64,000 nucleotides of DNA from Deferrisomatales bacterium (GCA_033551855.1 JAWSUI010000006.1:11189-75188), one strand, 5' to 3'; shown: positions 6,001 through 9,000, counted from the first letter of the stretch. Program-made: the numbers.

Positions 6001-9000
6001 CCTCCACGGCGACCACCAGCAGCCGCGCGAGAGGCGTGCGAAGGTCCACCAACCCCTGGGCTTCGCGTCTCCCCTTGCGGACCGGGATCTCCAGCGTCGC
6101 ACCGGGTTCGAGCCCGTGGCTCGCCCCGCGGTCCAGAAAGACCACGTCGTCGGAGGCGAAGTTGATCTGGCCGGGTGCCCCCCGGAGGATCAGCCCCTCC
6201 AGACCCGGTCGGGCTGCGTGGGGTCGGAGCTCTCCCACCGGGCCCCTGTAGGCCACGACCCCGTCGCCGTCCTCCACGGCGTCGTAGGCCTCCCAAAGCC
6301 AGCCGATCGCTCGCCCCTCCTCGACGCTCACCACCTCCAACTGGCCGAGAACCCGGACGAAATACCCGTCGGGTCTTCCCGTGACGGGGTGCAGCACCCG
6401 CTCGGAGTCATCGACGAGGGTGAGGCGCTCACCGGGCTGCAGCGAGACGCCGGGGGCAAGGGCGAGCTCCACGTCCTCACCGGTCGCGTAGGCCACCTTG
6501 ATCTGATAATGGTTGTCCACCGTGCCCAGCCTCTCCAGCGGGCGCGGGGAAATGAAGTCCAGCCCCCTGCCCCGGGCAACGGAGACCGCGAAACCGTCCC
6601 CACTCCCGTCCCCGTCCTCGCCCGTGGGGCGACCTCGGGCTTCGGCGGCCGGGGCGCCAGGCTCCAGGCGCTGCCAGGGCAGGTACACGAGCCGGTCCTC
6701 GGCCGGGACCCCGGCCTCCACACCACCTCGCCCCAGGAAGATCGGGTCGCCGGGGAAGATGATGTGGGGGTTTCGAAAGTGGGGGTTGAGAGCCCACAGC
6801 TCGGGCCAGGTCCAAGGGTCCTCCCAATAATGGCCGGACAGGTCCCAAAGGGTATCCCCTCGAACCACCCGGTGGTCCGCCTCCTGCCCAGCCGGGGCAG
6901 GGATTGCCGTCCACAGGGCCACGACTCCCACCAGCACCGCGCTCGCTCTTCGCACGCCAACCTCCCGTGCCCTGCTCAGGGCTGACTTTCCAGGAGCCGC
7001 CGGGCCTGGGCGGCTGCTTCGCTCCGGGAGTGCTCCGTGACGAGCCGCCGCAGAAACACGGCTCCCAGCTCCGCCTCCCCCAATTCCCGATAGGCCAATC
7101 CGATCTTGTACAGGGCATCCGGGACCCGGCCCCGCCGGGGATAGTCCTCTACCACCCTGTGGAACTCCACGACCGAGCGCTCGTAGTCCCCCTCGGCGAA
7201 ATACGCCTCTCCTACCCAGTACTGGGCGCTGTCGGCATACTCGTGCCCCGGGTTTCGGGCCAGGAACTCACGGAAGTCGGCGATTGCCTGCCCGTAGCTC
7301 CCCTCGCGGAAGGCGTTGAAGGCGCGCCGGTACAGATCTGCCTCCGGGGACGCCGTGCGCAGGGCCTCTCGGGGGCCCTCGTCCGGCGCCAACGGGGGCA
7401 ACGGCAGGGGGACCACCCGCAGGGGCTCGGGAGGCGGCAGCTCCTCCCGGGCAGGTCCAGGCGCCGCCCGCGCAGCCTCCTGCGCCTCCACCCGCTCTCG
7501 CAGGGCAAGGAGCTGCAACGTCACCTCGTCGAGGCGAAGCTCCAGCCGGCTGACCGCTTGGTGAAGCTCTGCCGGAACGGGACCGGGCTCCGTCGGCCTC
7601 ACCTGGGACGCGGGCCCTGCGCAACCTGCGAGAAAGAGCGACCCAGCGGCCCCGAACAGCACGTGCCGACGCATCTCTGACTCCTGGCATGTACGGTCAA
7701 AAGCGCACCGTACCTTACCATTTGGGCGTCTCTCGTCAAGAGGCACCGCAGTTCGGCTGGCGTATCGGCACGAAGGGCCGCCGAGTTTAACGCCGTCACC
7801 GTCATCCGACCGGGGTGCCGGTGCACCGCACGGCCACCGGAGTCACGGACCGGCCCAGGAAAGCCCGGGACGTGTCGGGGTACCGATAAAGAAACCCTCC
7901 TTCCTTGAATCACCTCTCCCCCCGGGAGGGGGGCCTGGGGTGAGGGCGACACTCCCGCGACCGGTCGGCGTTTCATCCCTCGGGGTGACCCGAAGGTCAT
8001 GGGCAGGCAAATCTGTCGGTTGGACCCTGGCGGACCAGAATCCACCACCACATTGCGGGGCGGAGTCCGGGAGCCCAGGAGTGCAGCCCCGCACCGCCTC
8101 CACCGAGTCGATGAGGCCGGCGCAAGCGGGTGAAGCCCGACGCACCGCGGACTGCTGCGACACCTCTTCGAATGGCCGCGGATTGCGGGGCGAAACGCAG
8201 GGGGTCGCGGACTCCGCTCGCCGACCAGCCGGTGGATCCCCGGCGGACCAGAATCCACCACCACATTGCGGGGCGGAGTCCGGGAGCCCAGGAGTGCAGC
8301 CCCGCACCGCCTCCACCGAGTCGATGAGGCCGGCGCAAGCGGGTGAAGCCCGACGCACCGCGGACTGCTGCGACACCTCTTCGAATGGCCGCGGATTGCG
8401 GGGCGAAACGCAGGGGGTCGCGGACTCCGCTCGCCGACCAGCCGGTGGATCCAGGCGGAGGGGACCCTTGATCCCCCCGGGACGCTGTGCTAGCGTCCGA
8501 TCCCTTCCCCGCAAAGCAGAGGTTGCAGGCCTTGTGTTCCCGAGGCGGCCCGAGGAGGCTCCGATGAAGATCGGCAAGGACGAGGTGCTGCGCGTGGCCT
8601 CCCTGGCCCGGCTCACCTTCGCCGACGAAGAGGTCGGCGCGCTGGCAGAGCAACTCTCGTGCGTCCTGGACTACGTGGACAAGCTCGGCGAGCTCGATCT
8701 CGAGGGCGTCGAGCCCATGGCCCACGTCCTGGAGCGGGAAACCCCCCTGCGGGAGGACTGCGTCCGGCCCTCCCTGCCCCAGCGGGCGGCCCTCGCCAAC
8801 GCCCCGGCGGTGGAGCAGGGCTGCTTCCGGGTGCCCAAGGTCATCGAGGCATGAGGAAGCACGGGGAGGAGACCGCGGCGCTCCGCCCGCGCGGCGGGGC
8901 GACGCCCGGACCCTGAGCAGGAAGGCAGCAGGAGCGCGCCATGGAACTCGTCTCGAAGACCGCCCGAGAGCTGCGCCTTCTGCTGGACCGGCGGGAGGTC

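Follow-up and report, generated by a model that had tools for sequence, protein, structure and literature searches.

Transposition into a fixed position upstream of bacterial promoters was previously reported for TnGBS, ISLre2 and ISKra4, which insert in an oriented manner 15-17 bp upstream of the -35 boxes of sigma-A promoters and generate repeats of 8-9 bp (PMC3942029, in which the work of Brochet 2009 on TnGBS is cited). All three are prokaryotic Mutator-like DDE elements, the TnGBS elements being ICEs and the ISLre2 family and ISKra4 group being designated there p-MULT 3 and p-MULT 4 respectively, and contact with RNA polymerase was proposed by analogy with Ty3 (PMC3942029). The accessible portion of that paper mentions neither IS1380 nor MITEs. 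In the accessible portion of a second study (PMC9208149), ISLre2 and ISKra4 are the only named exceptions in IS-gene distance, and IS1380 elements are over-represented between co-directional genes.

Here we analysed a repeat found in a 64-kb window (the whole stretch of DNA that was analysed) and throughout its own genome, G000 (4.24 Mb, draft in 132 contigs). The initial annotation had read the repeat as a promoter-seeking mobile element and had considered bacterial homing on promoters with base-pair register to be new. The novelty does not stand, since such homing was already published for TnGBS, ISLre2 and ISKra4 (PMC3942029).

The repeat in the window and its family in the genome

The window contains a tandem pair of the repeat, whose two copies are 98% identical, together with three further copies (Table 1). 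The promoter-proximal member of the pair has imperfect terminal inverted repeats of ~14 bp and a rod-like hairpin. We take the gene that follows, recognised from translations, to be gatC-like and to head a gatCAB-like operon; the ORF at 3829-5202 is presumably ffh-like. At 5715-5841 (-), 200 bp from the copy at 5302-5509, the MITE profile also matches weakly and in part (27.7 bits), with ends undefined.

Table 1. Positions of the repeat copies and neighbouring features, counted from the first base of the window.
Feature	Position	Strand	Remark
4-bp target duplication CGGA, first copy	8031..8034	+	duplication length from genome-wide count
MITE copy 1, promoter-distal	8035..8243	+	209 bp, one extra base in right end
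4-bp target duplication CGGA, middle copy	8244..8247	+	separates the two tandem MITEs
MITE copy 2, promoter-proximal	8248..8455	+	208 bp
4-bp target duplication CGGA, third copy	8456..8459	+	
Predicted -35 hexamer TTGATC	8468..8473	+	12 bp past right end of MITE copy 2
Predicted extended -10, TG-n-TAGCGT (TG-c-TAGCGT)	8488..8496	+	17-bp spacer; sequence prediction
Presumed gatC-like gene	8564..8854	+	first behind predicted promoter; ATG at 8564
Further MITE copy	5302..5509	-	upstream of ORF 3829-5202; TTGACA 9 bp from right end
Further MITE copy	15726..15933	+	only a poor -35 (TTCGCC) at 13 bp
Further MITE copy	31586..31802	-	217 bp; upstream of ORF 27986-31363; TTGACA 13 bp from right end

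Several other features of the window were noted. A 123-bp repeat, unrelated to the MITE and with a strong GC hairpin, occurs at 7883-8005, just upstream of the tandem MITE, and at 1077-1199, the pair being 85% identical. Its high depth in run X1 indicates that it is multi-copy, and we take it to resemble REP-like elements. A chromosomal 756-aa ORF at 12979-15249 looks like a family-B DNA polymerase, with exonuclease and polymerase motifs recognised by eye and a QLxL-type motif at its end. The 1125-aa ORF at 27986-31363 (-), behind the MITE at 31586-31802, looks like a fusion of fatty acyl-AMP ligase, carrier and aminotransferase.

For the genome-wide analysis a profile was built from 101 near-full BLAST copies. 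Searching with nhmmer gave 257 matches, of which 236 were non-redundant after overlapping palindromic self-hits had been dropped; 141 are near full length, and in total they cover 37.7 kb, or 0.9% of the genome. Only 4 of the 236 lie in genes, in agreement with the original description of a high-copy intergenic repeat. The modal length is 208 bp (50 of the 83 copies with both ends defined), the ends read CC...GG and are complementary at a median of 10/16 positions, and there is no coding capacity. The 213 bp given previously describes a real repeat, but corresponds to the element plus its duplication. Flanks are identical over exactly 4 bp in 33/83 copies, where shuffling gave a mean of 1.2 and at most 5; a 5-bp match occurs in 12/83 and one of 6-9 bp in 0-1 (0/83 for 8 or 9 bp), so that the target duplication is 4 bp and not the 5-9 bp assumed earlier. 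The longer apparent target repeats arise because the cut site has a weak G-NNNN-C context, with G before in 19/33 and C after in 18/33. We also noted subfamilies that share the right end but have a diverged interior, fall outside the profile (for example C23:34600, C71, C40:13446 and C25:7410) and likewise dock at 13 bp; the true copy number therefore exceeds 236.

The strong hairpin described previously is real, but is moderate for the G+C content: the window copy has folding z values of -2.4 as DNA and -2.6 as RNA, and the median over the 30 best copies is -3.2. Alignment folding of 76 copies returned only 19 pairs, and the consensus rod shows 166 both-sided changes, compared with a permutation maximum of 118 and slid controls of 72-120, although the relatedness of subfamilies inflates this figure, for which reason we claim no function as RNA. 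Rfam gave 0 matches in the window, as was also stated before. Being short and non-coding, with inverted ends, a target duplication and dispersal in high copy, the repeat is a non-autonomous miniature transposon (MITE).

Position and orientation relative to predicted promoters

Register was counted in G000 at 148 right ends with 70 bases of flank and at 121 left ends. TTGACA (at most 1 mismatch) was found at offset 13 from 31 right ends and at offset 14 from 14 (45/148), compared with 0-2 at each of the other 43 right-end offsets and with 3+0 of the 121 left ends at 13/14. This bears out a mobile element that, in G000, stands in a single orientation at a fixed place before promoters of the sigma-70 type. 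The 13-14 bp spacing claimed by the initial annotation thus holds genome-wide, but the window's own promoter-proximal copy stands at 12 bp. A second peak, of TAnnnT, occupies offsets 35-38 (10, 26, 19 and 10, a total of 65 in 148 right ends). Among non-distal right ends, 57/137 have neither TTG nor TTGACA (at most 1 mismatch) at 13/14. As an independent check, end-like motifs outside the profile matches have TTG at 13 in 13/86 and at most 3 at other offsets from 9 to 17. Whether a copy sits at 13 or 14 did not track its score (p 0.58), and tRNA promoters are not special as MITE sites (2/54). From these sequence motifs we infer that active promoters lie behind the MITEs.

Orientation was determined against our own crude gene calls (3,640 genes). 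Apart from the matches in genes, 24 lie at contig edges, and the right end faces a gene start in 190 of the remaining 208. In co-directional gaps, the informative subset, 82 MITEs run with the genes and 11 against them, and convergent gaps hold 7/208 matches versus 193/1,565 gaps overall. The median distance to the downstream gene start is 112 nt (n=125). The repeat does, as had been proposed, point in the direction of the gene behind it.

At the gatC locus the orthologues in G001, G002, G003 and G004 have a TTG hexamer at the matching upstream place, with no MITE detected there, and a TGTG(C)TA-type motif is conserved in G001-G005. Since these promoter motifs are conserved in G001-G004 without a detected element, they are host sequence. 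The relatives thus keep the promoter without the element, but divergence of their flanks prevents an alignment through the insertion point; a clean empty site was likewise not found among the DNA contigs of run X1, which covered three MITE copies. Among the best-scoring MITE loci of the relatives (7 of G001, 7 of G002 and 5 of G005), TTG lies at 13 in 5/5 evaluable copies of G001 (a tandem-distal and a contig-end copy being dropped), in 6/6 of G002 (one copy is without a right end) and in only 1/4 of G005. Two other explanations of the register were rejected. An outward -35 carried by the MITE does not fit because the bases between are unconserved host DNA beyond the duplication, and insertion of the HUH/IS605 type next to TTGAC does not fit because the element has inverted ends and a duplication and stands 13 bp from the motif.

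In tandem pairs the promoter-proximal copy is nearer the consensus in 10/15, the distal copy in 2, and 3 are tied (sign test by hand, p ~0.04; a contig end interrupts one of the pairs, and distance from the consensus measures age only roughly), as repeated insertion at one promoter-defined point would predict.

At the -35 TTG, 11/148 right flanks carry a short tandem duplication with a period of 10-22 bp whose end falls on the first T. The same duplications occur at 20/211 element-free promoters versus 24/600 random intergenic windows; examples are C4:40464, C60:7080 and C99:2882 in G000, run X1 at window position 8459, and locus L223 of G002 upstream of gatC. The ends of these repeats are concentrated at -7..+1, with 7-16 of 975 sites, and number only 0-1 from +2 on, a drop that is partly due to conditioning on TTGAC. 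Possibly they record repair synthesis stopped by bound sigma, or are transposase scars.

A probable IS1380-family partner

In G000, as a 132-contig draft, no transposase of the partner clade was detected with PF13701, tblastn, the clade profile or an alignment search; a weak match to NF033539 was obtained (E 2.7e-5). The initial annotation had likewise found no autonomous partner with the same ends in this draft; a likely partner is now identified in G002, of the same genus. Locus L042 of G002 resumes behind a gap in the assembly with the 3'-terminal 95 codons of an IS1380 transposase gene; then come a right end that matches that of the MITE and, 13 bp further on, TTGACG. The gap truncates the element, whose visible part is the right end only, and the transposase fragment alone falls below the PF13701 cut-off. 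Its closest full-length relative is P0001 (504 aa, 91% identical over the fragment), which scores 205.9 bits on NF033539 (cut-off 180) and is thereby identified as an IS1380-type DDE transposase. We also noted that, behind the IS1380 right end of L042, the promoter is followed by a leader (L042:1990-2160) and a thiF/thiS-like gene; by eye, the leader resembles a TPP riboswitch.

Complete autonomous elements with both MITE-type ends were not found in G000 or G001 but are present in other taxa. Compared with three autonomous 3' regions, the MITE matches at its tips but not significantly in its interior, so that the link to the partner rests on ends, duplication length and register. These features are common to the MITE, L042 and the loci L060-L217, from which mobilisation of the MITE in trans by IS1380 is inferred; its mover is likely an IS1380-family transposase. 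The partner element has inverted repeats that begin with CC and a duplication within 4-5 bp, both of which we presume to be typical of the IS1380 family.

Matches of the predicted P0001 structure (pLDDT 87.7) include Tn5 (E 5e-8) and piggyBac (E 1e-6); that to the Mutator-type ISCth4 is only weak (E 1e-2). Two QxxLxF-like motifs were seen in the protein, one at the N-terminus (residues 3-8) and one in a low-confidence loop (residues 355-360), and we take them to resemble sliding-clamp binding motifs. Binding of an IS1380 peptide to the clamp is described in the accessible part of PMC3971601.

Autonomous relatives and other IS1380 subgroups

The clade around the partner was sampled through its top-ranking matches, 78 out of at least 621 in genomes and 80 out of 244 in metagenomes, and in this sample its end consensus matches the MITE tips. 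An exact 4-bp duplication flanks 47/69 genome loci with both ends among these best genome matches and only 5/35 metagenome loci among the best metagenome matches, the low metagenome count being likely due to collapsed assemblies. Among the same best matches, 34+12 of 127 distinct right flanks and 13+6 of 120 left flanks have TTGACA (at most 1 mismatch) at 13/14. By group, and again among best matches, the right-end register was found in 6/19 Alphaproteobacteria, 7/13 delta/SAR324/other and 28/53 metagenome loci. Among the best matches from Chloroflexota/Dehalococcoidia the right end is at a promoter in 5/42 and the left end in 13/42, which indicates that a single orientation is not a rule of the IS1380 lineage. 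Because the clade loci are not independent they were collapsed to 66 right-end types, of which 29 have a TTG-led hexamer (at most 2 mismatches) at 13 and 13 at 14, with 0-4 elsewhere. Promoter-docking IS1380 elements thus share ends, 4-bp duplication and register in Chloroflexota, Alphaproteobacteria, deltaproteobacteria and SAR324.

Autonomous insertions with both ends have no promoter on either side in 39/101 cases. Where the inverted repeats are alike at 14/16 positions or more, the promoter is at the left in 9 and at the right in 11; where they are alike at 13/16 or fewer, it is at the left in 13, at the right in 26 and at both in 3. Asymmetry of the two inverted repeats, the feature linked to orientation in TnGBS, ISLre2 and ISKra4, was not supported as the cause of orientation here, there being no clear separation of these classes by our crude measure.

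A sister lineage, ~40-60% identical to L276 and read by eye only at loci with a readable end, also docks: exact TTGACA lies at 13 in L381, L383 and L386 (right end) and in L382 (left end), and is absent from that position in L385, L391 and L392. In a quick tree the core clade forms one branch (22 rows, support 100) within a wider 30-row branch that includes the sisters (support 97), and the clade is ~25-30% identical to the plasmid-borne named IS1380 members. In the other IS1380 subgroups sampled the register was not observed. The IS1380 element of G282 (25 matches) has it in 0/21 right and 0/18 left flanks. Other IS1380 single loci, 24 chosen by eye out of 65 for clean inverted repeats because automatic end-finding was unreliable for many, have TTGACA (at most 1 mismatch) at 13/14 in 0/24. 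In these data the CTAG-target and 5-bp AT-rich subgroups showed no 13/14 register. A within-genome control in G041 yielded too few complete copies for a count. We also observed that at L031 (G010:C1 ~3805700) a classical CTAG-target IS1380 directly adjoins a CRISPR-like array with repeats of 36-37 bp, into which it has apparently inserted.

Proposed mechanism and alternative explanations

From what is directly seen, namely the repeat with its ends, 4-bp duplication, register and orientation, and matching ends and register in autonomous IS1380 elements, we consider it quite probable that the MITE is moved in trans by the transposase of an IS1380 sub-lineage that recognises an occupied housekeeping promoter, most likely by contact with the sigma-70 holoenzyme on its upstream side. 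That an IS1380 transposase targets promoters is in itself highly probable; recognition of the bound holoenzyme at its sigma-4 face, a contact suggested by position, is fairly probable. A ~504-aa DDE transposase of this sub-lineage would bind the short CC...GG inverted ends and make a 4-bp staggered cut, such that the duplicated bases would begin 13 (sometimes 14) bp before the first T of the -35, at about -49, and extend over about -49 to -46. The spot would be found through the occupied promoter, the most likely contact being the upstream holoenzyme face, to which sigma region 4 would lie nearest; by general promoter geometry, duplicated bases at these positions imply that the target-capture complex would abut sigma region 4 on the -35. 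Since core promoter and gene would be left intact, hundreds of copies could accumulate, and the same promoter could be struck again, giving tandems. We lean towards the broader proposal that a cross-phylum IS1380 sub-lineage independently evolved a transposase which, as one protein, docks on the sigma-70 holoenzyme and places its insertions one helical turn before the -35; it would work across Chloroflexota, Alphaproteobacteria, deltaproteobacteria and SAR324 because the surface touched is conserved.

All of the register data would fit equally well if the transposase were guided by DNA shape or by another factor, such as bent or wrapped DNA upstream of the polymerase, the alpha C-terminal domain or the beta flap. 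The alpha C-terminal domain binds around -49 to -46, the region of the duplicated bases, and the P0001 model has no evident dedicated targeting domain, its lineage-specific residues being scattered. We nevertheless regard such guidance as unlikely. The -35 register (offsets 13-14) is tighter than the -10 register (35-38), with spacers of 16-18 at both offsets, which argues that distance is measured from the -35/sigma-4 end, and single-base precision over several phyla would be better suited by a rigid protein contact.

It is distinctly improbable that the transposase reads the sequence TTGAC at a fixed distance and strikes promoters only because they contain it. TTG at 13/14 is indeed the strongest single signal (50+28 of 148 right ends), 18 occupied intergenic TTGAC sites have no TAnnnT, and the weak G-NNNN-C preference at the cut is also in keeping with sequence reading. 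However, 51/128 right ends that do not precede another copy have no -35-like hexamer (at least 3 mismatches to TTGACA at offsets 11-16), and TAnnnT is still at 35-38 in 22 of these 51, versus 0-4 in twelve control windows; this is nearly the rate seen in copies with a good -35 (25/45). Occupancy of intergenic TTGAC sites is 25/244 where a -10 is present and 18/757 where it is absent (odds ratio 4.7, p 1e-6). Because the -10 stays in register without a recognisable -35, the target of the MITE is the promoter, as predicted from sequence, rather than TTGAC only.

Random insertion, followed by selection that keeps copies upstream of promoters or favours an effect on expression, is the most improbable explanation. 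Selection certainly removes copies within genes, and the copies observed remain a sample biased by survival. But insertions at offsets 16-40 would harm the promoter no more, or less, and each of these offsets has only 0-2 copies; near-identical young autonomous copies in other phyla lie at the same 13 bp, other IS1380 subgroups show nothing in like data, and relatives lacking the element conserve the -35 and -10, which belong to the host, so that no hybrid promoter is formed.

Significance and comparison with known systems

In the papers searched, promoter-docked transposition in bacteria has so far been tied to one transposase superfamily, for which polymerase contact is hypothetical. A second, structurally unrelated lineage that docks with one-base precision points to convergence. 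The occurrence of docking and non-docking branches in one family, together with a confident structural model, permits a clean comparison for the targeting surface. Insertion at safe sites and the mapping of promoters are possible uses of a transposase encoded by one gene that inserts next to promoters and leaves genes unbroken. In G000 about a tenth of the consensus-like intergenic promoters (25/244) carry a MITE in place of upstream regulatory DNA. If docking of the IS1380 transposase on the holoenzyme is correct, the family would provide a promoter-seeking integrase of Tn5-like fold that is portable between hosts, and MITEs of the clade would map the active housekeeping promoters of uncultured bacteria to the base.

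Like other prokaryotic MITEs, such as the Correia elements as treated in the accessible part of PMC9330008, the repeat is short, non-coding, intergenic and of high copy, with inverted ends, a duplication and a stable hairpin; it differs in its base-pair register to host promoters and in having an identifiable IS1380 partner. Yeast Ty3 also keeps a constant distance from the machinery that initiates transcription when it integrates at Pol III genes, but does so by a retrotransposon integrase in a eukaryote, and the analogy was already drawn for TnGBS (PMC3942029).

With the IS1380 family (ISEcp1, IS1247, ISPme1) the partner element shares the NF033539/PF13701 transposase, CC...GG ends that resemble those of ISEcp1 as read from plasmid sequence, and a short duplication, which for IS1247 is given as 5 bp in the available part of PMC3281130. 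The docking clade differs in forming a branch separate from the named plasmid-borne members, and these are described, in the portion of PMC9330008 accessible to us, for outward promoters and one-ended capture rather than for promoter docking. No report of promoter docking by IS1380 was found in the freely searchable literature, which does not extend to ISfinder and is limited evidence.

The closest counterparts are TnGBS, ISLre2 and ISKra4. As in those systems, insertion occurs at a fixed distance upstream of a housekeeping-sigma -35, usually with the right end at the promoter, some members face either way, and polymerase contact is a proposal. The differences lie in the transposase, which is Mutator-like (p-MULT) there and of IS1380 type with a predicted Tn5/piggyBac-like fold here, in the duplication (8-9 bp there, 4 bp here), in the distance to the -35 (15-17 bp compared with 13-14 bp) and in the inverted repeats (18-39 bp compared with ~14 bp). 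Promoter docking is thus known, and what appears to be new is its independent occurrence in a Tn5/piggyBac-fold IS1380 lineage spread over several phyla.
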